A stretch of DNA of 64,000 nucleotides. Origin: Candidatus Magasanikiibacteriota bacterium. Lineage in GTDB: Bacteria > Patescibacteriota > Patescibacteriia > Magasanikbacterales > GWA2-37-8. Made by a program: the position numbers and the translations under genes. Positions 14,334-57,254 of the stretch are shown one piece after another. The notes under the pieces were generated by a model. That model did not search any database. It was not told where the DNA came from and saw only the letters and a program-made list of their open reading frames with translations. Position 1 is the stretch's first letter. Each line of letters opens with the position of its first letter. The stretch lies in contig DAIOHD010000001.1 of the NCBI GenBank assembly GCA_036744835.1, positions 464,414 through 528,413 on the forward strand, in the 5' to 3' direction.

Positions 14334-14334
14334 A

Positions 14335-17194: not shown

Positions 17195-17204
17195 ATCACT
17201 TTAA

Positions 17205-18152
17205 TTATTTTTTTAATATAAAGACTATTCCACCTAAACTATTAATTATCACCAAAATCGAAAAAGACAAAAAAGCGGCGGCAACAGCCAAAGTGGAAGA
17301 AAGGCCTATGCTGATAAAGAAAAACACAAACGAGGCCTCTCTTAAACCTATTCCGCTAATTGATATTGGCAACATTATAAAAAGTGTAGTGATAGAATAC
17401 AAAAGAAAAACAAACCAAATACTTAACTGGACACCCAAAGCACTAATTATAAAAAATGTATACAAAATCGATAAAAACTGAAAAACAAAAGATAGAACTA
17501 ATGCAAAAAAAATATCTTTGGAAAAATCTTTATAAACTGTCATGGCCTCATAATATTTTAATAGAGTACTTCTAAATTTACCTCGTGTTAAATAATCTCT
17601 TAAACGTAATGAATTTCTTGTCAAAAAAAATAAAAAAAAGAAACCTAAAACAACAACAAATATCAATATGGCTAAAATGATTATTTTTGGTGGGTAATCA
17701 AATTTTGTACCAGCAACAGCTCCAGCAAACGATAAACAACTTAGTGCAAAAAATCCTAAACATCTGTCAAAAAAAATTGAAGCTAGCGTCTTTTCAAACG
17801 GAGCCCCGTCATTACTGACAATCTTTGCTCTTACAAAATCTCCGCCTATAACCGTAGGTAGAAAAGTATTAAAAAACATACCTGAATAATAAGCGCTACA
17901 TGATTTACCCAAAGAAACTTCGATATTTTGTTTTCTAAGAAGAATTTTCCATTTAATACTGCTTACTATAATACCTATATAGATAATAACGACTGAAAAA
18001 AACAAGTAGTATAAGTTAACGTTTTTAAGCACAACTACCAATCTATAAAAATCTATTGAATGTAGAATAAAAAATAAAACTAGCAATGATATTGCTGCCT
18101 TTATAAAAATTTTTATCTTTTTATCAATCATATCTCGCTTATTGAATAGCAA
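17205..18152 (-). CDS. flippase-like / lysylphosphatidylglycerol synthase TM-domain family protein (UPF0104)
   Basis: FLPTVIGGDFVRAKI motif; about 8 TM. Confidence 0.5.
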   Translation of the reverse strand: MLFNKRDMIDKKIKIFIKAAISLLVLFFILHSIDFYRLVVVLKNVNLYYLFFSVVIIYIGIIVSSIKWKILLRKQNIEVSLGKSCSAYYSGMFFNTFLPTVIGGDFVRAKIVSNDGAPFEKTLASIFFDRCLGFFALSCLSFAGAVAGTKFDYPPKIIILAILIFVVVLGFFFLFFLTRNSLRLRDYLTRGKFRSTLLKYYEAMTVYKDFSKDIFFALVLSFVFQFLSILYTFFIISALGVQLSIWFVFLLYSITTLFIMLPISISGIGLREASFVFFFISIGLSSTLAVAAAFLSFSILVIINSLGGIVFILKK

Positions 18153-19459: not shown

Positions 19460-19460
19460 A

Positions 19461-20132
19461 CTATTTATTTACCTTAGCAATACAAATTATTGATGGCTGA
19501 AAAATTTTAGGTAAAGTTTTGACAGGATAAAGAAAATGCAAAAATCCTATTTTGCTTTTTTGTCCCAACGTCAATTTTTTCATCTTAATAAAAGAAACAT
19601 CAAACCCTTGATTCTCTAACTTTTTTTTAAGTGTTTTATGTGATTGTGAAGAAACATGAAGATCGTCATTTTTTCTTGAAAAAAAATTAAACAATCTTTC
19701 AACTATTAAATTCGGTGTGGAAAAAATATAAAAACCTTTTGGTTTCAAGATTCTCTTGACTTCATCAAAATGTCTTTCCAACTTTGGTAAATGTTCAATT
19801 AACTCACTACTTACAACAATATTATAAGAATTATCTTGTAAATTAATGTTTTCTGCATCAATTTCATTTAAAACAATCCCGTTGATTTCGCGAGCCAACA
19901 AAATATTTTGTGGATTAAAATCACTACCGTCAATATTAAATCCTTGCTTTGTTAACTCTTTAACTAAAAATCCCCTACCCGAACCAAGTTCTAATATTTT
20001 AATATTACTTTTATCTTGAAAATTTTCTAGATATTCTATCAAAGAATCCTGTTTAGTTCTCCATTTTTGGATTATATCTGAACCAGTGTTTTTTTGAACA
20101 AGATTAGAATATTTTTCCTTAAAATTATTCAT
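19461..20132 (-). CDS. class I SAM-dependent methyltransferase
   Basis: ILELGSGRGFLVKEL. Confidence 0.6.
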   Translation of the reverse strand: MNNFKEKYSNLVQKNTGSDIIQKWRTKQDSLIEYLENFQDKSNIKILELGSGRGFLVKELTKQGFNIDGSDFNPQNILLAREINGIVLNEIDAENINLQDNSYNIVVSSELIEHLPKLERHFDEVKRILKPKGFYIFSTPNLIVERLFNFFSRKNDDLHVSSQSHKTLKKKLENQGFDVSFIKMKKLTLGQKSKIGFLHFLYPVKTLPKIFQPSIICIAKVNK

Positions 20133-21240
20133 AAATTTGTGAATATTTTTTTACCACAAAATTCCAACTCATTTTCTCTGCTTTTTGCCTACTGACTATT
20201 TTCATTTTTTCTAGTAATCCCCTACTATTATAAAATTTCTCTAAAGCATTATAAATTTCTTCCTCGCTATTTTTGTCCACTATTATACCATTTTCTTCGT
20301 TAATGAGCTCTTTAGAACCTCCGACGTCCGTTGTTATTATAGCCAATCCGGATGCCATGGCTTCAAGCACAGAATTGCTCATACCTTCGTTCAAAGAAGG
20401 TAAAACAAACACATCGGCTCGTTGATAAATTTTAGGTAAATTTTTATGTTCAACTGAACCAAAAAACTCTACTTTTTTATCTAATCCGGCAACTTTTATT
20501 TTATTTACAAATTCTTCTTTTAAATCCCCATCACCAACAATAAGTAGCCGACTATTTTTATATTTTCTCTCAAAATCAACAAACGCTTCAATTAAATATT
20601 TAATTCCTTTTCTTTTAATCAAACGCGAAGTGGAAATAATAACAAATTCACCATTGTCTTTTGTAACAGGAAAAAATTGTGCCGTATCTACTCCGTTATA
20701 AATAACAGAAATTTCTTGGTGTGGTGTTATTTTTAAAGCCAGATCTTTAAGTCCTTGAGAATTAGCGATTATGGCCTTAGATCTTTTCCAAATTTCTTTA
20801 CTTAATCGTTTAAAAAATAATTTATCTAACCAATAAAATCTTTTATTATAAAAAGGGACATCCGAACCACGCAAACTAACAATATAAGGAATTTTTAATT
20901 TCATCGCAATGTATCCGCAAGGAATCCCAAAAAAAGCATGTACTAAATCAATTTTTTCTTCTTGCTTCAATTTTTTACAATAAAAATAAGCTTTTATCGA
21001 ATAAACTAGGAGATCTTTGATACTTTGGTAATGGAAATTTCCTTTTTTATTAATATCAAGATAATGAATACAAATATTATCACTAAATTGCTCAATTTTA
21101 AATTTATTAACTGAAGAGGTAACTAAATCAATCTTTAAATCGGGGTATTTCGCAAATTCTTTAAGTAGATAATGGGTAGCATTGCCTGCTCCCCCGCCAA
21201 GAGGCGGAAATTCATAATTTAATACAAGAATTTTTTTCAT
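20125..21240 (-). CDS. GT4 family glycosyltransferase
   Basis: EGMSNSVLEAMASGLAIITTDVGG (E-X7-E region). Confidence 0.7.
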   Translation of the reverse strand: MKKILVLNYEFPPLGGGAGNATHYLLKEFAKYPDLKIDLVTSSVNKFKIEQFSDNICIHYLDINKKGNFHYQSIKDLLVYSIKAYFYCKKLKQEEKIDLVHAFFGIPCGYIAMKLKIPYIVSLRGSDVPFYNKRFYWLDKLFFKRLSKEIWKRSKAIIANSQGLKDLALKITPHQEISVIYNGVDTAQFFPVTKDNGEFVIISTSRLIKRKGIKYLIEAFVDFERKYKNSRLLIVGDGDLKEEFVNKIKVAGLDKKVEFFGSVEHKNLPKIYQRADVFVLPSLNEGMSNSVLEAMASGLAIITTDVGGSKELINEENGIIVDKNSEEEIYNALEKFYNSRGLLEKMKIVSRQKAEKMSWNFVVKKYSQIYE

Positions 21241-21244
21241 GTTT

Positions 21245-22099
21245 TTATTTCTTTAATAAAACATTTGTTATCCCACATTCTACATTTTTTCCAAAAAACA
21301 TTGGATTTATTTTAACTTGTTCTATAGAAAAATTTTCTATCTCGCTGTTTATTAAAGACAAACCATTGTCTGCAAATACTTTTATGTAATCGTCATAACG
21401 CCAACGATTGGTGTAGGACACTCCTTCTTTGGTTAAATATTTATTCCAGGCATAATCTGAATATTTATAAAACAAAAAAGGAGAATTAAAATTATAATGA
21501 TCACGTAAATCAATGTGATGATACATATAACCACCCGATACCAAAATTTCTGCCAATTTTTTTATATTTTCCGTTATATTTTTTATGTGCTCAAAAACAC
21601 TGATGGAATAAATAAAATCAACACTGGTTTTGATATCGCTTTCCACAAGGTCTTTACTGATAAAAGTAATATACTCACTCTTAATATTATTACTTTTGTC
21701 TAGAAAAAATAAACTATCAATTTTGTATTTATTTTTTATATAATCAATCTCTTCTAAAAAATACTTCAGTTGTTTTTTTGTTTTTATTTGTCTAGGAAAT
21801 TTATCGATCAAAATGACTTTTTTTGATCCTTTTAATAAAAAATTATAAGCATTAATGTATGAATTACCTGGTCCCAATTCAAGAATTACCTTATCTTTCA
21901 AATTAATATTATTTTTTAAAATACATTCATACATCTTTTCAAATCTCCTGTCTAACTCAATAAAATTACTAGAATATAACTTCCAAAATAAAAATTTATT
22001 AAATATTTTACTAACAAACCCTAATTTACAATAACTAAATCGTATCGAAGCATCAAACTTGTCAAAAACAAAACTAGCAAACCTATTTTTAATTTGCAT
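21245..22099 (-). CDS. putative methyltransferase
   Basis: ILELGPGNSYINA motif I-like. Confidence 0.4.
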   Translation of the reverse strand: MQIKNRFASFVFDKFDASIRFSYCKLGFVSKIFNKFLFWKLYSSNFIELDRRFEKMYECILKNNINLKDKVILELGPGNSYINAYNFLLKGSKKVILIDKFPRQIKTKKQLKYFLEEIDYIKNKYKIDSLFFLDKSNNIKSEYITFISKDLVESDIKTSVDFIYSISVFEHIKNITENIKKLAEILVSGGYMYHHIDLRDHYNFNSPFLFYKYSDYAWNKYLTKEGVSYTNRWRYDDYIKVFADNGLSLINSEIENFSIEQVKINPMFFGKNVECGITNVLLKK

Positions 22100-24574: not shown

Positions 24575-24700
24575 TAAACTCCACCCCACCCCTCCTCTTG
24601 AATAAGAGGAGGGAGGTTTCCCTCTCTTCTATTAAGAGAGGGATTAAGGGAGAGTCAAAAAGACCCGCTTCGTCAGCGAGTCTTTTTTTGTATTGAGATT
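24575..24700. terminator. bidirectional terminator region: twin CCUCCUCUU/AAGAGGAGG hairpins plus a U-flanked hairpin between greA and the giant gene
   Basis: cctcctctt-gaat-aagaggagg; ccctctctt-ctatt-aagagaggg; aaaagaccCGCttcgtcaGCGagtcttttttt (short CGC/GCG stem, weak). Confidence 0.55.
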
Positions 24701-27700
24701 TAGAATCCTATCCTGGAAGTATACGCCAGTATTTTGGAAATTATAGTTTCTCCAAGAGCAAACCCGGACATGATAGTTGACGGTAAAGTTCGCACATAAG
24801 AGGTTTTGATATTGTTTTCCAACATCCCCAAAGCGGTTATTTCGCGCAAAGTTTTATCTTCATCTACAAAATAATTTCTTCCGCCGATTTTAGCAAGCAT
24901 CCCCGGATAAACCGTAGCTTGAGTGATGCTTTCGGAACTCTTCACATAATATGGCCATTCGGACAAGCCGATAGTTTTGGCTTTGAATTTATCACCAAAA
25001 ATAGTTTTGGCTGCAGATAGAGTGATTGGGTATAGAGTACTGTTCAAACCAACCACATACAATTTATCCGAACTTAGATATTTTACTACTTCCGAACCAG
25101 GACGATAAAACACATGATAAGGAGCTTCCATTGGTTGACTCAAACTATCAAAACAACTTTGCGTAATAGATTTATAATATTTGGAATAATTATCATCCGC
25201 ATTCCAAGATTTGAAAACATCACCATCGGAGAAATATCGATAATTCATGTTATTGTCAAGCACATAGATAGCCGGTTTGCCCTCAACTTTGATCATATCT
25301 CCAGGAGCCAAAATACTACAAGTATCTCCGACTGCAAAGGTTGATGTACTGACAGCATCCGGACTATAAGTAATACTGGAAAGATAAGTGTTGGTCATAC
25401 CACCATTGGAGGATCGGAACATCGCGTAAATAGTTTTTCTACCATTATTTGAAGAAAGGGTAAAACTTTTGGTAATAGCGTATTTTTCCCAAGTCGTATC
25501 AATAAAACTGGATTTTTCTGAAACTACCATTTCTGTAGCATTGGCAACATTGAAACTTACACTCACCGCTCGTTCCTTGGTGATAAGTGCGCCACCATTA
25601 ATCACTACCGGATTTCTACCAACTGTCGGGATAGTTAAAACAGGAGCCACGACAACAATCGGTGTACTACCGCCGCCACCACCGCCTCCGCCGCCACCAC
25701 CAACATAAGTTTGAGTGTAAGCGATGTAATCAGTAAAGTGCTTGGTCCAAATTACCAAATCAGAACCAACATTTATCCTACAATCACCTCCGGCAGATAG
25801 AGCATCTCCAACTACCTGAGTATCAGCGCTACAAGTAGCAGTAATTTTAGTGAAAGTTGTTCCGCGATAATAACCGGCAAGATATCCTGATTTACCAGGC
25901 ATCAAAATCCTGACTGCTTTATCAAAATTCAAAGCTGTGTCACCAAAGCCAAGAGATATTACCGTATTTACAGTTGCGCTATAACCGGAATCAGGAGTTA
26001 CCGATACAGAGCTGGTAGCTTCGATAATTGGTAAAGAGATAGTACCGTTCCAGGTGCTTGTTGGAGTTGTGACAGTCATACCAGCTGGGAAAGTTACTTG
26101 AACAATACCGATAGTTGTTGAAACATTAACAGTGATCGAACCGGGAATGGCACCAACTGTAGATGTGGTAGAAGTAGCACTAGTTGCCGAAATATCTAAA
26201 TATATTGTAGTTGTAATACTGTCTGATACAGTGACTGTGGAAGTTGCTGTACTGTTATCACCGATTAAAATAATTGGTGTAGTCGTATTACCCTGAGTAG
26301 AGGTTGTTAGATTTTGCTCATCCGAACCAACTGATAAAACCCAGACTGTTCTGGTGGTAGAAGCGGTGTTGGAAGAACCATCGGTTGCAGAATAAACAAC
26401 ATAATATGTTCCCGTGACGTTAGTATTGACTGGGTTAGTAACATCAACTGTTGTAGTACCGTAAACAGCATCATAAGCGGTAGCGCCAAAATCTGTATAA
26501 ACCGTACCTACATAAATCTTCATATCCTCGCCTATTTTGGTAATAACCGGAGGAGTTGTGTCTGGACCAACTTTACCGGCTTCAAAGGTATCAATAGCAT
26601 TTTGTAAAGTGATCACTTCAGCATCTACTGTGGCTTGTGAAGAAGTGTTAGTTACTCCTTGAGCATGAACAATTGCTGTATTCAATGTTGTTTTGGAACC
26701 AACAGCATATTGACCGGGCAAAGTTCCTTCTACAGCACTACCATAAATAATGGTCGCAGTAGCGATTTTTGCATCAAGAGATGAAGTGTTGGACAACGGT
26801 ACTTTACTGGCTTCAAAAATATCAATAGCTCCTTGCAAAGTAGTTACTTCAGCATCTACCGTAGATTGTGAAGAAGTATTGGTAACTCCTTGAGCGTGGA
26901 CAATAGCTATATTGAAAGTAGTTTTGGACCCCGCAATATAATTTATCAATGGAATATCACCTTCAACCGCTGCATCATAAGTACTGGTAGCTACGGCAAT
27001 TTTAGTATCAAGTGCGGACACATCAGATAGTCCTACTTTGCTGGCTTCAAAATTATCTATGGCGTCTTGTAAATCAATAACCGCTTGGTCAATGGTTGCT
27101 TGAGAAGAGGTATTGGTATAACTTTGCGCGGTTTCAATTTCCGGTAAAAATATTGCTTTGGATCCTGAAACATAATGTACAATCGGGATATCACCTTCAA
27201 CCGCTGTATCATAAGTGCTGGTAGCTATAGCGATTTTAGCATCAAGTGCGGACATATCAGATAACGGGATTACACTATCTATGAAATCACTTTCTGCTTG
27301 TTGTAAATTTAAAACTGCTCCATCAACTTCCGATTGTAAAGAAGTACTGGTATAACCCTCTGCTATTTGAATCGCTGATAAAAATGTATTTTTTGAACTG
27401 GTAGTATATTGTCCTGGTAAGGTTCCGGTTACCGCCACATTGTACATAGCGGTGGCAGTAGCAATTTCAGCATTTAATTCTGTCATATCCGCATAAGGAG
27501 CGATGTTCACAATGTATACTTTTTGTGTTCCATTTTCCGCAGTCACAGTATAATTTACCGAATTGGTAAAATTTTGAGATACATCGCTTTCCGGATTTAT
27601 TGTCGCCAAAGAGCTTTCCAATTCTATGCTTGGAGTCAAAGAAGTAACAACTGTACCGGTCGAAACACGTATATCAATAGTGGAGGTAATTCCTTCATTT

Positions 27701-30700
27701 ATTGTCCCATAGATAGTACCCTCTGTCGGTAAATAAATAGAAAAATTCTTGATATTATTATTGGAACTAGAAACTACGGTTAATGTGGCAATAGAAGGAT
27801 CGGAAACGTTGTCATATTGATCAATGAGATAAAGATAATAAATACCGGTACCAAACGGAACATCCACAAGAGTACTTGTCCCAAATTCATCATCAGAAAC
27901 ACGCATATAGTCACCTTTTGCAAACTGATCCGCAGAAGTTAATTCCGTTGAAGTGGCGAACCAAATATGACTATTTGGCAAACCAGAAGGGTTGATGACA
28001 ATTTGTACTGTATCTCCTGTTTTTTCACTAGTAGTATCTAATGGGAATACAGTATCTTGATTATATGGCCTAACAAAAAGTATAGCATCAGAAGGTTCGG
28101 AAACTCCGGTTTCATTATTTATAACATAAAGACGATAAGCACCAGAAATATCTGGAGCTTCTATAGTAGTAGAAGTTCCAACCGCCATAGTCATAGTCGC
28201 ACTTACTGCAAATGAAGAAGTAGTATAACTGACAGAATATGGAGCAAACCAAATAAAGTTTTCCGAAGCGGTAGAGGTGGTCAAAGGGATTATAGAATAC
28301 CATTCAACAGTACTTGAAACAGTAAAAAGTTCGTTTTGATCAGTAGGGGCCGGAGAATTAATAACGTTGATTTCCCTAAGATTTGCATCTGCACAATTGC
28401 CCGCTGTATCGCAAACCTGATAAACAATATAAAAAGTACCGGTGTTATTTGTATTAACGAAATTTATATATCCCTCAGGTAACTTTGCTGACCTAACTAT
28501 GTCAGATGATACATCTCCGTCAATATCATCTATAGCCGTAGCGCCAGCATCAACATAATTACTATTTTGATAAACAGTGGTAGTAGCTTCTCCAATCAAA
28601 GAAATTACCGGAGGGGTGTTGTCTACTGTTAGGGAAGCTATAGAATGAGTGGAAACATTGCCCACTATATCTACAATATAAATATAATAAATTCCTTCGT
28701 CACTTGGAACATTCATCCCTGTATAAGTACCGTCATAGGCCTTAGTCATAGTCGCACATTCATAAAATTGTTCCTGAGTAGTTAATCCGTCCGGAGCAAA
28801 CCAAACATTATTATCGGCATTACCAGAAGAGTTTATCTCGACCCAATTACCGCCAGAGATAATTTTTGACACTGGAAATACTACATCTTGAATTTCAGCG
28901 GTAAATACCGATACGGTATATTCTTTGGTAGTAACTTCGTCTTCAGCAGTTACCGTATAAATTTGCGGATTAGTAAAATCTTTTGGCAAACCGTCATTTT
29001 CCGGATATATAGTTGTTGATAAATATTTGCTTAGTTGTATTTCAGGTGTTAATGAACCTCTATCCGTTCCTAACGGCAAGTAACAATTGATATTAGCATC
29101 GGAAATATTACATTTATAATATGTGCTTGAAACAGTAAAACCAAAATTATCAATATTGGTACTATTGCTTGATAATATTGTCCAAGTAGCCAAAGATTGA
29201 TCGGAAACATTATTGTTTTTATCAATAATGTAAAGGTGATAGGTGCCGGTGGCTATAGGCGCCCAAGCTTGTCCCCCCATACCATCATCACCTTGATAAA
29301 AATTTCTCATATTTAAGGACTCTTCAAACTGCACACTAGAGGTTAGGCCAGCTGGAGCAAACCAGACATTGCTATATGGTAATCCTACAGGATTGATATT
29401 TATTAAAATATCCCCACCTGTTCGTATCGTGGAAGTTGAATTCGGAAAAACTTCATCTTGATTATCTGGTCCAAGCACAGTTAAAATCGCATTTGATGGA
29501 TCGGAAACATTACCATATAATATATCATCAACGACATACAAACGATAATTACCAGCTTTATTTGGAGCCTTAATCACATAATCTTCTTTCCAGCCACCTT
29601 TGGTCATATAATCATCTTCCACAAATTGTTCAACAGAAGTCATACCTTCCGGCGCAAACCACGCATTACCAACCCATCCTTCTATAGGGATAGTTATAGC
29701 AACATTTTCTCCAGGCAAACTACTGGTAGAAACTGGTAAAAATTCATTCTGTTTTAGTGTTTTTGTGACAGTAACCGAAGCATCCGATGGTCCAAAAATA
29801 TCGCCGACATTATTTATAACATAAACAAAATATTCTCCAACTCGTCCGGGAGCATCCATACCGGTATTTTGCCCGTTATCAGTTTTAGTGGTTGTCACAC
29901 CATTCAAATCAAACTGTTCTGTGGAGGTTAAACCGGCTGGAGCTAACCAAACTTGATTATCAAAATTACCGGAAGAATTAATATTAATCCAGCGATTTTC
30001 CGGATAAACAGTTTTGAAAGCCGGTAAAACTAAATTTTCAATATCTTCTTCAATTTCCACAGTCACTATATATTGTTTTATATCTCCACTTTCCGCTGTA
30101 ACTGTATAAACTACTGGATTAGTGAAATCTTGTTCAACCCCCTCTTCCGGACTAACTGTAGAATTAGTTCCTTTGGGGAAACTAATACTGGGAGACAAGT
30201 GTGTAACATCAATCTCTGGATCGTTTGGAATATAAACTTTGATGGTCGGACTCGGAGTAGCGGTTTCATCAATAACCCCCAAAATATCTCCGGTAAAATA
30301 AGAAGTTGAAAAATAAAAGTAAAAATTCCGAATACTATTATTCGCACTTGGTAAAATAGTCAAAGTAGATGTAGAAGCTTCGGAAACATTTCCGTATTCA
30401 TCAATCACATAAAAATAATATGTTCCTGTGGCAATGTTAAAATTAAAATTTATTTGATCTCCCATCGGACCAAGCATCCCCAAAGAAGTGGTAGGGCCAT
30501 CTTGGATAAAATCCGAAGAAGACACCATTCCCGCTGGTGCAAACCAAAACTGCATTTTCTCGTTTACGCTTGGATCAGATACTAAAACTAAATTTACATA
30601 ATTATAAGTGCTGGTAGATTCGGTAAATATTAAATTTTGATTTGTCGGGCCGGTGACGGTCAAAGTAGCATCAGAAGGATCGGAAAGCGCCACAGCTCCT

Positions 30701-33700
30701 GGGCCCTCACCTTCTCCACCTTCAGTTGCCAATAATACAAAGAATTTATATTCCCCGGCTAAAAACGGCACAGTGGTGGTAGTTGAAGAAGCAGTATAAG
30801 GAAAAACTGCCGAAACCCTGTCAGCTGAAGTTTCTCCTTCACCTATATCGGGAAAACCTTTAAATAAAGCTTCCAAATCATCTTTGTATTCTTCCGGGGC
30901 AAAAAATCCGCCCACCATAATATATTCATCATAAATCGCTAGATTTGGTGCAAAAGACACTACTCCACCAACAGCTTGAACTATGGTAGACGAAGAAAAA
31001 AGAGCATTATTTTCCGGTTTAACTCCAAGCAAAGCTAACGAAGGGGCTGAAACTATACCTTCTTCGCTAATCACATACAAACGATAAAAACCAGGTTGAG
31101 TAGGTGCAATAATCTCAATTGCATCCCCTACCGCCATGGTCATAGTAGCGCTTTGTACAAATTCTTCTACACTTGTAAACAAGGTAGTGGACGGAGCAAA
31201 CCAAATCTCATTATTAACATCTCCCGAAGAATTTATTGACACATTAGATCCACCGTTTACAGTTGTGTAATCTGGAAAAACTTGATCTTGAAGTAACGGA
31301 CGATCTATAACATTCACTTCTCTCCAAAATACACCACTCCAATTACCAGCCTCATCCCAAGTTTCATATCCTATACTGTAAGTTCCGGTGACACTGGAAT
31401 CTATATAATCTCCGCCTCTAGCGACTTCAACATCTATAGTAGTGCTGACTCCATCAATCAAATCCCAAACAATAGTGCCAGCATCTACTTCTATCCCTGT
31501 ATTAGTCAAACTTTCACCTTGGTAAATATAAGCCGGGTTATCACCTAAAATTTCTATAGTTGGTGGGGTTGCATCAACTGTCAAAGTCGCATTTGAAGGA
31601 TCACTAACAAAGCAGGTGGCATGATCATTGTTACAATCTATATCTGGAAATTCCGGACTGGGAGTTAAAACATAAAGCTTATAATGACCCTCAAGCGAAG
31701 GAGCATATAGAAAGGAAAAAGATCCATTTTCCGCCTTAGTCATTGTTGAACCGTCTATATAAAATTCGGTAGGGTCAGTTAAACCAGCAGGGGCAAACCA
31801 AACAGAATTGGAAACATTTAATGAAGGATTGATAGATACATAGCCACTGGAACCGACTCTTACTGGTCCTGGAAAAACAAAATTTTGCACTCCAGCCTCA
31901 AAAACAATTACCGTATATTCTCTTTGGTCGCCATTTTCTGCGGTAACAGTATAAACAACGGGATTAAAAAAATCCTGCAACACATCACTTTCCGGTTCAA
32001 CTGTAGCAAAATCGGAAATTTTAAATGTCGGTGTTACTGAACTGAGATCAGAGCCAGTTGGAACATAAACATTTATATTTGTTCCGCTGGTTATCCCAAA
32101 ATAATTAACATTATCAATAGAAAGAGAAAAACTATCAATATAATTACTCGCACTTGGTAAAACCGTCAAAATTGCATCAGATGGTGAAGAAACATTTTCA
32201 TACGGATCTATAACATAAAGATGGTATGTTCCAGTAGTAATGGGCGCTCTCAATTGGGTAGATAATCCACTTTGTGCCTGTGTCATTGTTTCTCCGGCAA
32301 CAAAATCCAAAATTGTCGCCATACCCGGAGGGGCAAACCAAACTTGGTTTAATTCATTTCCGGAAGAATTAATTGAAATAGAAGGCATTTTACTTGTTTC
32401 TTTGGTCACACTGGTAGAAGCGGTAAACACATCATTTTGCAAATTCAATCCGGTCACAGTCAAAATAGCAGTAGAAGAATTTGATAAAACATAAGCTTCC
32501 GGGCCTGATTCTCCCATAATAAAAGCAGCGATATAGATATTATAATCTTGTGCAGAATAAGGCGCTTGCATCTGATAAGTTTCAGAATTATATGAGAAAG
32601 GAGGCAGTGAATCAAAAGAAACCGTATTACTAACCATCTGTCCAGAATTAAAATCCGGTAAATTTCCCATTATATAAGCAAAAGGATTGTCTGTGTTTAT
32701 AGGTACCAAAATAGCCAAAAATGTTACCCCGTTTATTATTTCACTGGAATTTCCATTTATAGGAAACATTTCTCCAGAAGCGGAGCTAGTAGACGAAGGC
32801 AGGGTTATGTTTTGATTGTAAGGTTTAACACTCAATATTGCTTTTGAAGGATCTGATACCATCCCTGTATCTTCATTTACTAAATAAACTCGGTAAAAAC
32901 CGGCGGTGCTCGGAGAAGAAATAGAAGTTGCAGTACCTGAAGCTACGGTCATGGTAGCACTAACAACGAATTGTTCGGCTTGTGTAAATTCTAAAGTTGC
33001 CGGAGCAAACCAAATAGTGTTGGTAGCTGCAGTTGAAGTCACACTGACTGATGAAGAATGATCCACTTCCAAAGATATTGAAAAAACTTCATCTTGGTCA
33101 TTTGGTTTAGGAATGCTCGGACCAAAACCGGCCATGCTGGTAAAAACTCCAAAACCATTGGTATAAGAAAGATAAAGATTTCCGGTGTTACTTACAACAT
33201 TCAATACACCGTCATAATCTGTCATCGGTGAACTGACAGGATTTATAATATCAAACACAACAGGAGTAACAGAATTGTCAAATATACCGGAACTGGCAGA
33301 TGTCTCGGTTAAGGTAATATTTTCTATATCGCTTCCCGTGCCCCCATCTGTAGTGGTAATTGTAACATAAATCGTTTCAATAGTACTTGAAATAAAATTT
33401 GCAGTTGGATCAGTGATAGAAATAATAACAGAATCCGTATCGGTATTATAAGGTGCACTGTCAAAACCGCCAGAAGCTTCTTTGATAATTTTACCCGGCA
33501 TAGCTCCTGTAGAAAAAACCCTACCATTATTAATATAATCTCCTAAAACAACTAGATCGTAATCAAAAAAATCAAAATCTCCGTTATTAGTAAAATTGGT
33601 CGTGGTTATATTTCCTGCTAATATATGATTTCCTTCATTGCTAATAGTAAGACTATAGAAATTGACATTTCCTGATCCGCCCAAAGTTCTACTAGCAGGA

Positions 33701-34179
33701 GTAAAACTCGTGCTTAAAAAAACATTTGCAACACCACCGGTAGAATCAAAAGTTCCTCCATTAACAATAAAGTCTGAATATCCGATCGTTGAAAGTTGAC
33801 CACCGAGTAAATTTACTATACCAGAATCAATATCGACAGCGCTATCAACGGTAATATTACCGGAATTTAAAGTAACAGTACCGGAATAGCCGCTTTTCAA
33901 TCTTAAATATGAAAGGTTTAAATCTCCGGAATTGTTGGCGCTGGTATTGGTAGTTCCGTAAAAAGTAAAATTTATAGGTGAACCCCAAGGAAAAGTTAAA
34001 GGATCTCCGCAAGATCCATGCCAATTATCATAATTTTGCATGTTATATGGATCTGTACTGGACGCAGAATACCATACACATTCAGCAGCTGCGTTTACTT
34101 GCACTGGCCCGCTTAATAAAAACCAAACCCCGGCTAGTAAAATAAAGACGGCCGAGATCTTCGAAAAAGATTTTATCAT
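24700..34179 (-). CDS. giant (about 3159 aa) secreted modular surface protein / adhesin-like
   Basis: Likely start MIKSFSKISAVFILLAGVWFLLSGPVQVNA-AAE, a signal peptide. Eight or more repeats of a beta module pair (W/VWFAPAGLTS..EQF...TMTKA..G.Y.LYVID..GNVS.PS.A.LTV and QDFTNPVVYTVTAE.G....Y.V.V). Three DUF5011-like Ig domains (DTTPPVI...TGTYY..Y...D..GN). Four FIVAR-like repeats. A Gly11 linker and a unique C-terminal domain. Confidence 0.8.
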   Translation of the reverse strand: MIKSFSKISAVFILLAGVWFLLSGPVQVNAAAECVWYSASSTDPYNMQNYDNWHGSCGDPLTFPWGSPINFTFYGTTNTSANNSGDLNLSYLRLKSGYSGTVTLNSGNITVDSAVDIDSGIVNLLGGQLSTIGYSDFIVNGGTFDSTGGVANVFLSTSFTPASRTLGGSGNVNFYSLTISNEGNHILAGNITTTNFTNNGDFDFFDYDLVVLGDYINNGRVFSTGAMPGKIIKEASGGFDSAPYNTDTDSVIISITDPTANFISSTIETIYVTITTTDGGTGSDIENITLTETSASSGIFDNSVTPVVFDIINPVSSPMTDYDGVLNVVSNTGNLYLSYTNGFGVFTSMAGFGPSIPKPNDQDEVFSISLEVDHSSSVSVTSTAATNTIWFAPATLEFTQAEQFVVSATMTVASGTATSISSPSTAGFYRVYLVNEDTGMVSDPSKAILSVKPYNQNITLPSSTSSASGEMFPINGNSSEIINGVTFLAILVPINTDNPFAYIMGNLPDFNSGQMVSNTVSFDSLPPFSYNSETYQMQAPYSAQDYNIYIAAFIMGESGPEAYVLSNSSTAILTVTGLNLQNDVFTASTSVTKETSKMPSISINSSGNELNQVWFAPPGMATILDFVAGETMTQAQSGLSTQLRAPITTGTYHLYVIDPYENVSSPSDAILTVLPSASNYIDSFSLSIDNVNYFGITSGTNINVYVPTGSDLSSVTPTFKISDFATVEPESDVLQDFFNPVVYTVTAENGDQREYTVIVFEAGVQNFVFPGPVRVGSSGYVSINPSLNVSNSVWFAPAGLTDPTEFYIDGSTMTKAENGSFSFLYAPSLEGHYKLYVLTPSPEFPDIDCNNDHATCFVSDPSNATLTVDATPPTIEILGDNPAYIYQGESLTNTGIEVDAGTIVWDLIDGVSTTIDVEVARGGDYIDSSVTGTYSIGYETWDEAGNWSGVFWREVNVIDRPLLQDQVFPDYTTVNGGSNVSINSSGDVNNEIWFAPSTTLFTSVEEFVQSATMTMAVGDAIEIIAPTQPGFYRLYVISEEGIVSAPSLALLGVKPENNALFSSSTIVQAVGGVVSFAPNLAIYDEYIMVGGFFAPEEYKDDLEALFKGFPDIGEGETSADRVSAVFPYTASSTTTTVPFLAGEYKFFVLLATEGGEGEGPGAVALSDPSDATLTVTGPTNQNLIFTESTSTYNYVNLVLVSDPSVNEKMQFWFAPAGMVSSSDFIQDGPTTSLGMLGPMGDQINFNFNIATGTYYFYVIDEYGNVSEASTSTLTILPSANNSIRNFYFYFSTSYFTGDILGVIDETATPSPTIKVYIPNDPEIDVTHLSPSISFPKGTNSTVSPEEGVEQDFTNPVVYTVTAESGDIKQYIVTVEIEEDIENLVLPAFKTVYPENRWININSSGNFDNQVWLAPAGLTSTEQFDLNGVTTTKTDNGQNTGMDAPGRVGEYFVYVINNVGDIFGPSDASVTVTKTLKQNEFLPVSTSSLPGENVAITIPIEGWVGNAWFAPEGMTSVEQFVEDDYMTKGGWKEDYVIKAPNKAGNYRLYVVDDILYGNVSDPSNAILTVLGPDNQDEVFPNSTSTIRTGGDILININPVGLPYSNVWFAPAGLTSSVQFEESLNMRNFYQGDDGMGGQAWAPIATGTYHLYIIDKNNNVSDQSLATWTILSSNSTNIDNFGFTVSSTYYKCNISDANINCYLPLGTDRGSLTPEIQLSKYLSTTIYPENDGLPKDFTNPQIYTVTAEDEVTTKEYTVSVFTAEIQDVVFPVSKIISGGNWVEINSSGNADNNVWFAPDGLTTQEQFYECATMTKAYDGTYTGMNVPSDEGIYYIYIVDIVGNVSTHSIASLTVDNTPPVISLIGEATTTVYQNSNYVDAGATAIDDIDGDVSSDIVRSAKLPEGYINFVNTNNTGTFYIVYQVCDTAGNCADANLREINVINSPAPTDQNELFTVSSTVEWYSIIPLTTSTASENFIWFAPYSVSYTTSSFAVSATMTMAVGTSTTIEAPDISGAYRLYVINNETGVSEPSDAILFVRPYNQDTVFPLDTTSEKTGDTVQIVINPSGLPNSHIWFATSTELTSADQFAKGDYMRVSDDEFGTSTLVDVPFGTGIYYLYLIDQYDNVSDPSIATLTVVSSSNNNIKNFSIYLPTEGTIYGTINEGITSTIDIRVSTGTVVTSLTPSIELESSLATINPESDVSQNFTNSVNYTVTAENGTQKVYIVNIAPYADMTELNAEIATATAMYNVAVTGTLPGQYTTSSKNTFLSAIQIAEGYTSTSLQSEVDGAVLNLQQAESDFIDSVIPLSDMSALDAKIAIATSTYDTAVEGDIPIVHYVSGSKAIFLPEIETAQSYTNTSSQATIDQAVIDLQDAIDNFEASKVGLSDVSALDTKIAVATSTYDAAVEGDIPLINYIAGSKTTFNIAIVHAQGVTNTSSQSTVDAEVTTLQGAIDIFEASKVPLSNTSSLDAKIATATIIYGSAVEGTLPGQYAVGSKTTLNTAIVHAQGVTNTSSQATVDAEVITLQNAIDTFEAGKVGPDTTPPVITKIGEDMKIYVGTVYTDFGATAYDAVYGTTTVDVTNPVNTNVTGTYYVVYSATDGSSNTASTTRTVWVLSVGSDEQNLTTSTQGNTTTPIILIGDNSTATSTVTVSDSITTTIYLDISATSATSTTSTVGAIPGSITVNVSTTIGIVQVTFPAGMTVTTPTSTWNGTISLPIIEATSSVSVTPDSGYSATVNTVISLGFGDTALNFDKAVRILMPGKSGYLAGYYRGTTFTKITATCSADTQVVGDALSAGGDCRINVGSDLVIWTKHFTDYIAYTQTYVGGGGGGGGGGGSTPIVVVAPVLTIPTVGRNPVVINGGALITKERAVSVSFNVANATEMVVSEKSSFIDTTWEKYAITKSFTLSSNNGRKTIYAMFRSSNGGMTNTYLSSITYSPDAVSTSTFAVGDTCSILAPGDMIKVEGKPAIYVLDNNMNYRYFSDGDVFKSWNADDNYSKYYKSITQSCFDSLSQPMEAPYHVFYRPGSEVVKYLSSDKLYVVGLNSTLYPITLSAAKTIFGDKFKAKTIGLSEWPYYVKSSESITQATVYPGMLAKIGGRNYFVDEDKTLREITALGMLENNIKTSYVRTLPSTIMSGFALGETIISKILAYTSRIGF
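26570..27500 (-). repeat. four tandem about 235-bp DNA repeats encoding FIVAR-like units inside the giant gene
   Basis: Near-identical blocks seen directly, for example ttcaaaggtatcaatagc... at 26581 and ttcaaaaatatcaatagc... at 26821. Confidence 0.6.
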
Positions 34180-34295
34180 ATATAAAAATAGATAATTATT
34201 GAAATTTTTAAATAATATCTCTACTGCAAAGTATATCATATTTTGAATTTATGGTCTAATCTTTTTTTACTCTAAAATAGGCCAAAACTGTGGAT

Positions 34296-46733: not shown

Positions 46734-46866
46734 GCTCCCGGGGTCGGCGCTTCGCTATTCGAAGTCGTCGCTACGCTCCTCTCACAAAAACCTTCGGGTT
46801 TTCGTGGACTTTCCTCAGCAAGAGAAAACTCCCGTTTTCTCCCTTTCCCGTTCGAATCCTCACCAC
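46734..46866. ncRNA. tRNA-linked structured element, copy A (3' of tRNA-Asn)
   Basis: Left end gctcccggggtcgg-CGCTTCGCT-ATTCGAA duplicates the tRNA-Asn acceptor-3'/T-stem and T-loop with a 9-nt insertion. Hairpin1 cacaaaaacc-TTCG-ggttttcgtg; CU-rich linker; hairpin2 gagaaaac-TCCC-gttttctc; cctttccc. Right end GTTCGAATCC is complementary to the left ATTCGAA. Confidence 0.55.
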
Positions 46867-46872
46867 AGAACA

Positions 46873-46908
46873 AAAAAATATCACCCCATAAATGGAATGA
46901 TATTTTTT
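46873..46908 (-). terminator. hairpin terminator immediately 3' of tRNA-Asn
   Basis: aaaaaaatatca-ccccataaatggaa-tgatatttttt. Confidence 0.6.
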
Positions 46909-46909
46909 G

Positions 46910-46981
46910 CTCCCGGGGTCGGATTCGAACCGACGACCAATTGATTAACAGTCAACTGCGCTACCGCTGCGCTACCCGGGA
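46910..46981 (-). tRNA. tRNA-Asn (GTT)
   Basis: Manual cloverleaf: TCCCGGG TA GCGC AGCGGTA GCGC A GTTGA CTGTTAA TCAAT TGGTC GTCGG TTCGAAT CCGAC CCCGGGA G; 72 nt, no encoded CCA. Confidence 0.8.
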
Positions 46982-50062: not shown

Positions 50063-50140
50063 GATGGATACCTCCCTAAAAATAGTAATGAACGATAATT
50101 TATAATTTTACTCTTAGAAAATTGTTTTGTCAAGATAAAC

Positions 50141-50165
50141 AAAAAAACCTTTGAAAAAGGTTTTC
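50141..50165 (-). terminator. hairpin terminator 3' of element B (copy of the tRNA-Gln terminator)
   Basis: aaaaaaaccttt-gaa-aaaggtttt. Confidence 0.55.
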
Positions 50166-50175
50166 TGTTTATAAG

Positions 50176-50318
50176 TTCCGAGGCTTGGCGCTTCGCTACT
50201 CGAAGTCGTCGGTCTTCGGCCTCCTCCTTGGAAAACCTTCGGGTTTTCCAATACCTTTCCTCCTCATAGAGAAACCTCCCGGTTTCTCCCTTCCCCAGTT
50301 CGAGTCCAAGCTCAAGAC
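50176..50318. ncRNA. tRNA-linked structured element, copy B (3' of tRNA-Gln), with its own minus-strand promoter and terminator
   Basis: Left end ttccgaggcttgg-CGCTTCGCT-ACTCGAA duplicates the tRNA-Gln 3' end with the same 9-nt insertion. Hairpin1 ttggaaaacc-TTCG-ggttttccaa; linker cctttcctcctca; hairpin2 gagaaacc-TCCC-ggtttctc; right end TTCGAGTCCAAGC. Minus-strand TTGAAA-16-TATAAT at 50320..50347. Confidence 0.6.
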
Positions 50319-50319
50319 A

Positions 50320-50347
50320 ATTATATAAACAAAAAAACCTTTTTCAA
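50320..50347 (-). promoter_or_regulatory. sigma70-like promoter (TTGAAA-16-TATAAT) oriented into element B
   Basis: Minus strand reads ccTTTGAAAaaggtttttttgtttaTATAATtgtcttgag; the -35 lies in the loop of the tRNA-Gln terminator hairpin. Confidence 0.45.
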
Positions 50348-50366
50348 AGGTTTTTTTGTTTATAAG

Positions 50367-50437
50367 TTCCGAGGCTTGGACTCGAACCAAGATAGACAGC
50401 TTCAAAGGCTGTTGTCCTACCTTTAGACGACCTCGGA
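50367..50437 (-). tRNA. tRNA-Gln (TTG)
   Basis: TCCGAGG TC GTCT AAAGGTA GGAC A ACAGC CTTTGAA GCTGT CTAT CTTGG TTCGAGT CCAAG CCTCGGA A; U1-A72; 71 nt. Confidence 0.8.
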
Positions 50438-52034: not shown

Positions 52035-52189
52035 AGTGATATTATTATAACACAAAAAAAATAAACGAGCTAATCCCGCTTATTGTGGACAAAATTTTAT
52101 TTAAACCATCGTTTAGCCCGTCATCACTTGAACCCTCTATCAGAATCATCAAACTGATGTTTGTGGTTTACCTGCCCGACATGCCTTTG

Positions 52190-52262
52190 AGCCATCTCGG
52201 GGATTCGAACCCCGGACCTACGGTTTACGATACCGTTGCTCTACCAACTGAGCTAAGATGGC
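52190..52262 (-). tRNA. tRNA-Thr (CGT)
   Basis: GCCATCT TA GCTC AGTTGGTA GAGC A ACGGT ATCGTAA ACCGT AGGTC CGGGG TTCGAAT CCCCG AGATGGC T. Confidence 0.8.
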
Positions 52263-52291
52263 GTGTCTTTGGCGGGCGGGCGCGATACCAT

Positions 52292-52316
52292 CGTTCTACC
52301 ACTGAACTAAAGGGGC
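52292..52316 (-). pseudogene. truncated tRNA 5' fragment (acceptor plus D-arm only)
   Basis: GCCCCTT TA GTTC AGTGGTA GAAC G, then no anticodon or T arm; followed by GC-rich filler and then tRNA-Thr. Confidence 0.35.
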
Positions 52317-52384
52317 TTAGGCAAAGGCGGGTAGGTCTAATCTGAGCGGGATAGGAATCTCACTGCTCGTCCGCCTTAAACGGA

Positions 52385-52465
52385 CTGCGCTTTGAGAAAC
52401 CTTCGGGTTTCTCAAGAACTCTTCCTCCTCAAGAGAAAACTCCTGTTTTCTCCCTTTCCCTTCAT
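52385..52465. ncRNA. tRNA-linked structured element, copy C (core only; directly 3' of tRNA-Gly)
   Basis: Hairpin1 ttgagaaacc-TTCG-ggtttctcaa; linker ctcttcctcctca; hairpin2 gagaaaac-TCCT-gttttctc; cctttccc. Lacks the tRNA-derived end pieces. Confidence 0.5.
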
Positions 52466-52492
52466 CCTTGCTTGCCCGCCAGGCTTCGTCTG

Positions 52493-52563
52493 AGCGAGTA
52501 ACGAGAATCGAACTCGCGTCTCATGCTTGGGAAGCATGCATACTACCATTGTACTACACTCGC
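52493..52563 (-). tRNA. tRNA-Gly (CCC)
   Basis: GCGAGTG TA GTAC AATGGTA GTAT G CATGC TTCCCAA GCATG AGAC GCGAG TTCGATT CTCGT TACTCGC T. Confidence 0.75.
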
Positions 52564-52590
52564 GCAAACGAAGCCGGCGGGAGAAGGATA

Positions 52591-52615
52591 CATACTACCG
52601 ATGTACTAATCCCGC
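52591..52615 (-). pseudogene. second truncated tRNA 5' fragment, just upstream of tRNA-Gly
   Basis: GCGGGAT TA GTAC ATCGGTA GTAT G (D-arm near-identical to tRNA-Gly), then TATCCTTCTCCCGCCGG with no anticodon stem. Confidence 0.35.
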
Positions 52616-56641: not shown

Positions 56642-56799
56642 ATAATATAGTAGAAATTAACTTATCCACTGTTTTTTAAATCAGGGACTTGATTTTTTTA
56701 TAAATTTAGTATATCATAATGAACGTTATTTTGTCTAATCCAAGCCAAAGACAAAATGGCGTAACTTTGCCAATAAAGGCAGAAATAATGGGCCGGTAG

Positions 56800-57080
56800 C
56801 CCCTCACCTATACCTTTATGTTTTACGTTTATCTTATAAAAAGTAAAATAGATGAGAGCACCTACATTGGCTATACAAACGATCTAAAAAGACGCTTGGT
56901 TGAACACAACAAAAGACTGAATAAGTCTACCAAGAACAAAGCGCCTTTTGAGCTCGTTTATTACGAAGCTTATAAAGAAATGGCTGACGCAAAACATAGA
57001 GAATTTAATTTAAAACGTTTTGCCAAAGCTTATCAACAGTTAAAACTACGCCTTAAGGACAGCCTAAAGGCATAGGTGAG

Positions 57081-57083
<3 letters not shown>
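56800..57083 (+). mobile_element. GIY-YIG gene cassette bounded by 12-bp perfect inverted repeats, inserted at the 5' end of tRNA-Lys with an 11-bp duplication of the tRNA 5' end
   Basis: IR-L cccctcacctat (56800..56811), IR-R ataggtgagggg (57072..57083). Direct repeat GGGCCGGTAGC at 56790..56800 and at 57081..57091, the latter being tRNA-Lys nt 1-11. Confidence 0.5.
56818..57075 (+). CDS. GIY-YIG nuclease superfamily protein (UPF0213/YhbQ-like, 85 aa)
   Basis: MFYVYLIKSKIDESTYIGYTNDLKRRLVEHNK; the stop codon lies inside IR-R. Confidence 0.8.
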   Translation: MFYVYLIKSKIDESTYIGYTNDLKRRLVEHNKRLNKSTKNKAPFELVYYEAYKEMADAKHREFNLKRFAKAYQQLKLRLKDSLKA

Positions 57084-57153
<70 letters not shown>

Positions 57154-57254
57154 CAAATCACATTATCTAAAATACAAGATAGTGTTGTTTTATAGGAAAA
57201 TAACAATTTCACCGGGATATTTTTATAAAGCTCATTAAAAAAACAGGAGGAAAA

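Follow-up and report, generated by a model that had tools for sequence, protein, structure and literature searches.

We analysed a stretch of 64,000 nucleotides (nt) of the Candidatus Magasanikiibacteriota bacterium contig DAIOHD010000001.1 (positions 464,414 to 528,413 of the forward strand), called the window below, in which three copies (A, B and C) of a small structured element lie next to tRNA genes. The results of our comparisons showed that the copies probably are members of a family of non-coding, non-autonomous insertion elements of small size (about 110-200 bp) that are site-specific for the part of tRNA genes between the T-loop and the 3' end, are mobilised in trans and act as a folded single strand, probably of DNA. 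The hosts of this family are Magasanikbacteria and related Patescibacteria. Compensatory changes and wobble pairs indicate that selection acts on the core in its folded, single-stranded form with tRNA-sense polarity, and mirror covariation suggests that each of the core hairpins is clamped by a third strand as a class I intrastrand purine-motif triplex.

The 25-nt core motif AGAGAAAMCTCCYGKTTTCTCCCTT matched the + strand of the window only at positions 46821, 50268 and 52432, with 0 matches expected from 100 shuffles, and AAACCTTCGGGTTT was exact at the same three sites. This bears out an earlier note on this DNA, made from the sequence alone, which had described a core shared by three copies. 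Both hairpins of that note, and the compensatory differences between the copies, can be read straight from the sequence: the core is 75 nt long and, viewed on the + strand, consists of hairpin 1 (HP1), with a 10-bp stem and a TTCG loop, and hairpin 2 (HP2), with an 8-bp stem and a TCCC or TCCT loop. The reported linkage to tRNA genes also holds, all three copies being located 3' of minus-strand genes for tRNA-Asn, tRNA-Gln and tRNA-Gly(CCC) (ARAGORN, Rfam), at 58, 68 and 30 nt for A, B and C, respectively. The coordinates given earlier were roughly right but the units extend beyond the shared core, and the partial tRNA copies present at both ends of each element had been overlooked.

An Rfam search had been proposed as a check and was run. 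Five tRNAs passed the gathering threshold in the window, and neither the gathering nor a permissive search (E<=10) gave a family for the element, group I introns included; tRNAs were the only families found. The best non-tRNA matches at E<=10 were microRNA-like hairpin models scoring less than one third of their thresholds, those at copy B being due to the long palindrome formed by the tRNA end and the terminator. Literature searches found no description of the element.

A covariance-model search, also proposed earlier, showed that further copies are present in related genomes. The model of the core (R1, 74 positions) found 63 copies (50 distinct) in 54 sequences, all of them Patescibacteria-type contigs, including Magasanikbacteria; three divergent copies among the matches scored 25-55 bits. 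A pattern scan of one genome per species had returned 33 stretches, about 23 of them true (match length 57-60) and all of these from Patescibacteria-type metagenome-assembled genomes, and a looser pattern matched 31 metagenome contigs. The core pattern gave 0 matches in viral contigs and a collection of phage records searched with copy A matched through tRNA-Asn only, so a phage origin is not supported. A same-strand tRNA gene ended 14-120 nt upstream, mostly 43-72 nt, in 47 of the 64 matches, and the linked tRNAs were of 15 specificities (Leu, Met, Ile, Glu, Asn, Lys, Arg, His, Ser, Trp, Gly, Pro, Gln, Val and Asp). The remaining matches were second units of tandem arrays, had a pseudo-tRNA or cargo between the tRNA and the core, or had no tRNA.

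Read on the tRNA strand, a unit starts with the intact tRNA, usually followed by a long terminator-like hairpin (T2) and then by an arm which is the reverse complement of the T-loop and the T-stem 3' half of the cognate tRNA. The core follows in the order GGGRAAGG, HP2 (8 bp, loop GGGA), UUGNNGAGGAARG, HP1 (10 bp, loop CGAA) and GAGAG. After it come a variable small hairpin, an orphan, defined as a T-loop copy with the T-stem 3' half and the acceptor 3' strand of the same tRNA, and the native downstream flank of the gene. This order of the units indicates that the tRNA has been kept intact while its old 3' end was displaced downstream, where it is decaying. Comparison of 38 non-identical elements with cognate and non-cognate tRNAs gave 13.9 versus 6.5 for the direct copy of the tRNA end and 11.6 versus 7.2 for the inverted copy.

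Where the register is clean, the arm perfectly complements tRNA positions 53 to about 62-64, and complementarity is lost over the acceptor part. The arm is an inverted copy because it is so with non-palindromic T-loops, TTCGAGT in copy B and TTCAAGT at loci L021 and L033 (relatives and loci are designated by L numbers); these T-loops and a base that distinguishes the T-stem halves in L033 led us to reject a direct copy of the T-stem 5' half. The wobble bias of the pairing between arm and target was not used, since its count is spoiled by 1-nt register shifts.

Three classes of junction were found (the slash marks the break): GACGAC/TTCGARU followed by a GCGAAGC mini-hairpin, in the place of which L051 has a GTCCCAAAGGGAC hairpin; CGAGUGA/GAUUCC; and GCGA/GUUC.. 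The break was inside T-loop positions 53-57 in every class. At the tRNA-Val gene of L004, an element of 110 nt stands directly after the CCA, between perfect 24-bp repeats (GTTCAACTCCTCTATTGCCCACCA). The direct repeat is about 14 nt long in copy A, 24 nt in L004 and about 60 nt in copy B. A target duplication of fixed stagger, as for casposons or CRISPR repeats, was rejected on this variable length and on the differences between T1, the original terminator, and T2 in copy A and L003, and tRNA-primed reverse transcription was rejected because the orphans of CCA-less genes are without CCA.

Comparison of occupied and empty alleles showed that copy B is absent in L065 and L066, where the neighbouring protein is 95% identical to that of the window. 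The tRNA-Gln of these relatives directly precedes the terminator and the flank GTTTATCTTGACAAAAC, which in the window both follow the orphan, and the window therefore carries about 190 extra nt at tRNA-Gln. Copy C is absent in L030, which has a single plain tRNA-Gly(CCC) where the window has a broken old gene, and L065 has a copy C element at the same site with a different HP1/linker subtype. The native flank of the orphan of copy A (TTAGGATATTATTTTTTT) follows an intact tRNA-Asn in L065, and further downstream of it lie a pseudo-tRNA-Asn, an unrelated GC-rich insert, a third copy of the tRNA end, the T2 and arm of copy A and a decayed core. The tRNA-Gly, tRNA-Thr and tRNA-Gln genes of L069 and L070 (73-74% relatives) are simple and without core.

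Copy B of L030 and that of the window differed at three positions in about 270 nt (about 99% identity), while their flanking genes were just 73-87% identical. The near-identical block spans from about 4 nt before the tRNA 5' end to inside the orphan. The 3-nt loop of T2 is flipped (GAA versus TTC) between these otherwise identical elements (window 50340-50350, L030 about 1810-1820), and T1 of the window (50150-50160) carries the other loop orientation.

Tandem units were found in L005/L039 and in L069, with more decayed distal orphans; later insertions enter next to the tRNA and so build arrays. About 700 nt including an open reading frame (ORF) separate the tRNA from the T2-arm-core-orphan block in L015, and a disrupted older tRNA-Ser lies between the tRNA and the core in L029 and L062. 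The copies without tRNA in L001/L054, L026, L044 and L050 keep T2, arm and orphan, and adjoin accessory genes, e.g. for an EcoRI-type methylase, a GmrSD/HNH nuclease and restriction-modification.

The paired structure of the core was then scored over the 50 distinct sequences. On the tRNA-sense strand, 99.9% of the 895 pair cells were standard pairs and changes on both sides were present at 14 of the 18 pairs, while 0 of 500 shuffles reached the observed values; a smaller set for pair counts comprised 26 sequences. These values support a hairpin family under selection, as the earlier note had proposed. All nine wobble cells (9/9) were G.U or U.G on the tRNA-sense strand; on the + strand they would read A.C, and the selected strand is therefore the tRNA-sense one. 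The functional strand had been left open, and the data now favour the minus strand. The reading of the loops as C(UUCG)G tetraloops is that of the wrong strand, the C(UUCG)G of the + strand being complementary to the loops that matter. The two strands could not be told apart by the folding energies or z-scores of whole elements.

The purine tract located 5' of each hairpin mirrors the 5' (purine) strand of this hairpin and co-varies with it. In alignment A4 (0-based column numbers), third-strand column 55 held a guanine if and only if pair 61-83 was G-C (22/22 versus 24/24), and column 53 held an adenine with an A-T pair at 63-81 in 39 cases and a guanine with a G-C pair in seven. Column 54 tracked its own pair, 62-82, with one exception, and column 4, in the tail, held an adenine with an A-T pair at 15-31 of HP2 in 37 cases and a guanine with a C-G pair in nine. 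None of 10000 trials of a permutation test (0/10000) equalled the observed mirror identity, which was 212/230 in register (shift 0) and 114-156 at shifts of +/-1. Mirrors were also found in the divergent copies L002:7879-7961 (GAAAGGG-TTT-GGGAAAAC and GGGGGAGAG-TTCAC-GAGAGGGC) and L005:4343-4417 (AAAGGGG-TGGC-GGGGAAA), and in copy C of the window (GGAAGAGTT-C-TTGAGAAAC). The earlier note had compared the purine tracts with mimicry of Shine-Dalgarno or CsrA sites. GGA does occur in the HP2 loop (GGGA or AGGA) and in the purine tracts, but such mimicry gains no support here and would not predict tracts that co-vary with the stems as their mirror images.

Class I intrastrand purine-motif triplexes have a reverse-Hoogsteen, a purine and a pyrimidine domain, in this order (PMC4666352). 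This order, with its first two domains mirror-symmetric, was found in both modules of the core and in the three divergent copies, and it suggests that a third strand clamps each hairpin as a triplex of this class. According to the same source, purine-motif triplexes can arrest polymerases but do not form in RNA (PMC4666352); because of their reported absence in RNA, the active form of the core is probably folded single-stranded DNA. The GC skew of the + strand is negative throughout the window, and by the usual rule the minus parental strand would therefore be the lagging-strand template; the tRNA-sense strand also serves as the non-template strand when the tRNA unit is transcribed.

All features of the three window copies are on the minus strand. 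The whole unit of copy A (46734-46908) comprises the displaced tRNA end, junction hairpins, core, inverted arm and terminator-like hairpin, and is carried by an intact tRNA-Asn(GTT) at 46909..46981 (ARAGORN; Rfam tRNA, 72.2 bits). Its T2, directly 3' of the tRNA (46873..46908), has a stem of 16 pairs followed by a T run; T2 and the arm form a long imperfect palindrome with the 3' part of the tRNA, and the same hairpin accompanies an A-like element in L001/L054 and L065. The 5' arm (46850..46871) consists of the inverted T-loop and part of the T-stem of tRNA-Asn (GGATTCGAAC) and then of a diverged stretch of acceptor length. The core (46777..46850; R1, 99.8 bits) is made of the tail GGGAAAGG (46842-46849), HP2 (46822-46841, loop GGGA), the linker GAGGAAAG (46809-46816) and HP1 (46783-46806, loop CGAA). 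The variable junction region (46764..46779), GGAGCGUAGCGACGAC, holds a small GC GUA GC hairpin, and its sequence differs among members of the family. The orphan (46734..46763), which contains an exact 14-nt repeat of 46909-46922, is made of the T-loop copy TTCGAAT (46757-46763), a GCGAAGC mini-hairpin insert (46748-46756) and the T-stem 3' half with the acceptor 3' strand, CCGACCCCGGGAGC (46734-46747), and is followed by the native flank TTAGGGTATTATTTTTTT. No promoter-like site was found in copy A.

Copy B extends over about 50174-50365, with a second terminator at 50135-50173, and is carried by an intact tRNA-Gln(TTG) at 50366..50437 (ARAGORN, Rfam). The trailer, the T2 hairpin (50324-50364) and a duplicated downstream flank (GTTTAT..CTTGA) occupy 50312..50365, as delimited by comparison with the empty site of L065. 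A sigma-70-like site, TTGAAA-16-TATAAT (50347-50320, 11/12 consensus positions), is aimed into the element and is built from the loop and right half of T2 plus an 8-nt insertion. The 5' arm GCTTGGACTCGAAC (50298..50311) exactly matches, in reverse complement, the T-loop of tRNA-Gln (TTCGAGT) and the 3' half of its T-stem (CCAAG). The core (50222..50297; R1, 91.1 bits) has an HP2 of the GAGAAACC/GGTTTCTC type and an HP1 of the TTGGAAAACC type. Within 50174..50221 are the junction hairpin GGCCGAAGACC, then GACGAC and the T-loop copy TTCGAGT (50198-50204), the GCGAAGC mini-hairpin (50189-50197) and the displaced tRNA-Gln 3' end CCAAGCCTCGGAACT (50174-50188). The original terminator T1 and the native flank GTTTATCTTGAC (50129..50173) come directly after the intact tRNA-Gln in the relative without the element.

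Copy C is carried by the intact inner gene for tRNA-Gly(CCC) at 52492..52563 (ARAGORN, Rfam) and is embedded in a broken older tRNA-Gly(CCC) (52343-52615). Its core (52386..52461; R1, 84.9 bits) has HP1 (TTGAGAAACC/GGTTTCTCAA) after the mirror tract GGAAGAGTT, and an HP2 with an AGGA loop. The junction hairpin GTCCGTTTAAGGCGGAC (52369-52385) is followed by GAGCAGTGA and by the displaced 3' end GATTCCTATCCCGCTCA (52343-52359), which comes from the older gene; the orphan is fuller in L065 than in the window at this site. Within 52462..52615 (fold z = -6.6), a 17-bp stem flanks the inner tRNA (CCCGCCGGCTTCGTTTG, 52564-52580, and CAGACGAAGCCTGGCGGG, 52474-52491); the 5' half of the old tRNA-Gly(CCC) is left as an orphan at 52583-52615. 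The inner gene has an acceptor stem different from that of the broken resident and sits inside the resident's anticodon loop; it looks like an incoming replacement for a damaged tRNA gene. A giant functional 'tRNA within tRNA' was rejected for copy C, since L030 and L065 show that the outer gene is older and was broken by insertion.

Several other inserts of selfish appearance were observed at tRNA loci. A GIY-YIG ORF of 85 aa (56818-57075, + strand) ends 5 nt before tRNA-Lys(TTT) (region 56790-57154), is bracketed by a perfect 12-bp inverted repeat (56800-56811 and 57072-57083) and has an 11-nt copy of the 5' end of tRNA-Lys ahead of it (56790-56800); this order of GIY-YIG and tRNA also occurs in L065 (Gln, Asn) and L052 (Ser). 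A tRNA-Thr(CGT) (52189-52262) is nested in an older tRNA-Thr(CGT) (52132-52316 of the window, minus strand; 3650-3935 of L030), which is split at anticodon position 35/36 (ATCG/.../TAA) by a GC-rich inverted-repeat insert (CCCGCCCGCC.../...GGGCAGG) without any group I intron signal. The outer gene has a perfect acceptor stem and T arm in L030 and is decayed in the window; L069 and L070 have a plain gene. Small GC-rich inserts of a second, unrelated family (..GAGCGACCAAACTGCTTTGGTCGCG..GGATGAGAACGCCGGAGCGATG..) are present 3' of tRNAs in L053 (about 700-900), L065 (about 8600-8760) and L069 (10300-10470), also precede a displaced tRNA 3' end and are accompanied in L069 by a GCGAAGC mini-hairpin. 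The tRNA-Asn next to an element in L051 (about 1050-1250) was not called by ARAGORN, its 5' part being interrupted by an insert with a CCCCGATGTTAAAGTCGGGG hairpin, which may be the position-35/36 intron reported for tRNA-Asn of Patescibacteria. Elsewhere in the window (G+C about 35%), the neighbouring genes include FtsE/FtsX, a Mur ligase and a SurA-like protein, a single ORF of 3179 aa occupies 24700-34239 on the minus strand, and positions 14001-22000, with about seven consecutive ORFs, have a G+C of 25-28% and may have been acquired horizontally.

In the mechanism that we favour, the element would integrate at the T-loop, where its own copy of the 3' part would complete the tRNA and the resident 3' part would be displaced; a regenerated tRNA with a displaced fragment is the defining footprint of integration into tRNA genes (PMC4383910). 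The arm would pair with the T-loop/T-stem segment and rebuild a duplex of the target beside the folded core, the two triplex-clamped hairpins would be the structure recognised by a trans-acting recombinase or nuclease, and recombination at the T-loop would be carried out by a putative enzyme supplied in trans. Alternatively, a replisome or polymerase stalled by the triplex could switch templates at the palindromic TTCGAA and so make the direct and inverted copies. The single-stranded DNA could come from the lagging-strand template, from the non-template strand of a transcribed tRNA locus or from an intermediate of transfer or excision. That the core is a natural single-stranded-DNA device, whose pair of triplex-clamped hairpins serves for recognition or stalling in a new, T-loop-specific way of inserting DNA, with a target rebuilt by the arm and either an enzyme in trans or template switching, is a more tentative proposal, which we hold as a possibility and not as the expected outcome. 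The earlier note had named a mobile element that explains the conservation as an outcome that would speak against its reading, and the tRNA-end duplications, insertion polymorphism and tandem stacking now largely provide one. The selection on structure is real, but it most likely serves the element and not an RNA function of the host.

Several observations weigh against this interpretation. The search for partner genes, by clustering of all ORFs within 2.5 kb of 60 copies and by Pfam scans, found neither a recombinase nor a transposase or reverse transcriptase within or close to any copy. The clusters consisted of spurious ORFs overlapping the core and of ordinary syntenic genes, apart from one small GIY-YIG cluster (L021, L031 and L052), whose genes are linked to tRNAs but accompany a minority of the copies; no element-encoded tyrosine or serine integrase was found, the elements being of 110-200 bp and without ORFs. 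No excised form or junction was seen, mobility being deduced from comparative genomics, and the acquisition by the element of an arm and a 3' end matching each new tRNA is left unexplained. The length of the direct repeat, from about 14 to about 60 bp, is at odds with a target-site duplication of fixed size and also with a simple single crossover, and the near-identity of copy B between L030 and the window includes the tRNA gene and could reflect homologous recombination of the whole locus. The promoter-like site just upstream of the arm of copy B would fit an RNA product. As for the triplex, the sequences that show its covariation fall into few subfamilies, so that the events are not all independent, and the candidate structure has just 4-7 triplets, with one conserved non-canonical position (G over A-T).

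The covariation and the polarity of the G.U pairs would fit a tRNA-sense RNA as well, and a structured non-coding RNA gene, beneficial to the host or encoded by the element, whose transcription on the tRNA strand would come from read-through or start at a promoter of its own, is unlikely but deserves serious attention. The closing stem, formed by the arm and the tRNA-end copy, would then mimic an acceptor/T-arm minihelix for processing or CCA addition by tRNA enzymes, and the conserved purine-rich core would bind a protein or another RNA. The loops GGGA and CGAA are indeed nearly invariant, copy B has TTGAAA-16-TATAAT just ahead of its arm and a terminator behind its orphan, some orphans bear a mini-hairpin conserved in structure and differing in sequence (GCGAAGC versus GTCCCAAAGGGAC), and tRNAs themselves use purine-purine-pyrimidine base triples. 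However, a strong terminator hairpin usually lies between the tRNA and the element, copy A is without a promoter-like site, the distribution is patchy among tRNAs and close relatives, with no element at the same loci in the 73-74% relatives, the orphans decay and some cores are decayed or truncated; no Rfam family matches, and RNA is reported to be unable to form runs of purine-motif triples (PMC4666352). A resemblance by chance, or tandemly duplicated tRNA flanks in decay without any selected structure, has a negligible probability: tRNA flanks are often repetitive, and nothing further speaks for it, whereas three sites found for 0 expected by shuffling, 50 distinct copies with 99.9% paired cells and compensatory changes at 14 of 18 pairs refute it.

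The element could also be a passive hitchhiker without mobility of its own, which homologous repair or transformation would pass only from one allele of a tRNA to another after double-strand breaks at tRNA loci (e.g. by GIY-YIG enzymes), with the tRNA gene and its duplicated 3' end acting as homology arms. The GIY-YIG ORFs upstream of tRNA-Lys (5 nt, in the window), tRNA-Gln and tRNA-Asn (L065) and tRNA-Ser (L052), the 99%-identical B block bounded by conserved sequence, the mutual homology of the arms of Asn-linked copies in different genomes and the use of the same tRNA-end junction by the second small-insert family agree with such a process. It leaves unaccounted for near-identical cores at at least 15 tRNA specificities, each with a cognate arm and orphan, as well as the selection on a folded core, and most copies are without a nearby GIY-YIG gene; we regard it as quite improbable. 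The integron-like cassette site is a long shot, in which the arm (..GAAC) would be the R'' box and the T-loop (G/TTC..) the R' box of an attC site, with the core as variable terminal structure. The folded strand would recombine with a T-loop in the role of an attI-like site, and the cassette would be a replacement tRNA 3' end with its terminator and sometimes an ORF. The AAC/GTT triplets are conserved at both junctions, the junction is at T-loop positions 53-57, the newest unit of an array is proximal, L015 has an ORF-bearing unit and the GCGAAGC bulge would resemble extrahelical bases. From arm to T-loop the element measures about 125 nt, a size like that of long attC sites. Against this, RYYYAAC/GTTRRRY fits at the triplets only, with G/C instead of Y/R at the fourth position, there are no L boxes and the paired box is of 12-13 bp, no intI-like gene or attI was found in any locus examined, and the units are dispersed at tRNAs across the chromosome and not gathered in one array.

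If the more tentative proposal of a single-stranded-DNA device is true, comparative sequence analysis would for the first time have shown that an intramolecular DNA triplex is selected for, and the element would represent a new class of parasites of tRNA genes in ultra-small bacteria. The island footprint at tRNAs, classic for large integrase-bearing islands, would here come from a gene-less element of about 150 bp at many tRNAs. The element would account for the orphan tRNA halves and the nested or broken tRNA genes that confuse annotation in Patescibacteria, and it points to a T-loop-acting activity supplied in trans. Proposals of intramolecular DNA triplexes in bacteria go back decades but came without evolutionary proof that such structures are selected, and the mirror covariation renders such selection directly testable with a defined 75-nt sequence and its natural compensatory variants.

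Comparison with known systems showed partial likeness in each case. Group I introns occur at position 35/36 of tRNA genes of Patescibacteria (PMC13011429), the same phylum and the same class of target, and tRNA genes there often host selfish inserts; the element differs in its location outside the mature tRNA, its size of 75-110 nt, the lack of an Rfam group I match and flanks that are DNA duplications instead of exons. As in integron attC and CTX-type folded sites, a folded single strand would rebuild a duplex recombination site beside a structured region, and AAC/GTT junction triplets, bulged mini-hairpins and proximal growth of arrays are shared with attC, whereas there is no match in core-site consensus, box architecture or genomic organisation, and no integrase of the integron type was seen. 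MITEs (miniature transposable elements with inverted repeats) and REPIN/PATE elements are likewise short, non-coding, multi-copy, hairpin-rich and presumably trans-mobilised, and a fold of specific polarity would suit single-strand transposition. Unlike in MITEs, the inverted ends of the element are not constant but copy the T-loop/T-stem of each cognate tRNA, its direct repeat of 14 to about 60 bp is not a fixed short target-site duplication, its target is the tRNA 3' end, and no parent insertion sequence or RAYT/Y1 transposase was found.

The known intrastrand triplex repeats BoxC and PIT, which are tied to rearranged loci and to polymerase arrest (PMC4666352), share with the element the single-strand domain order and the nature of small intergenic repeats. 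The element, compared with them by description, has two tandem modules of mixed A and G instead of one G/C-rich motif, is linked to tRNAs with duplications of their ends, is found in Patescibacteria and is known from covariation. The closest parallel in behaviour is with genomic islands of tRNA and tmRNA genes, for which the Islander definition (PMC4383910) describes a tRNA split near the T-loop, a gene regenerated by the insert and a displaced 3' fragment at the far end; empty and occupied alleles and tandem accretion beside the tRNA are also common to both. The regenerated tRNA with a displaced fragment was found here in 38 elements, with exact repeats in A and B and in L004, and both occupied and empty alleles were found for B (empty in L065), for C (empty in L030) and for the Gly, Thr and Gln loci (empty in L069 and L070). 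The element differs from these islands in its size of 110-200 bp without integrase or any other gene, in a single core that serves at least 15 specificities, in its inverted copy of the target T-loop/T-stem and in a core selected as a folded single strand. In behaviour it is thus a new variant of the integrative elements of tRNA genes, and in structure its core may be the first natural DNA triplex supported by covariation.

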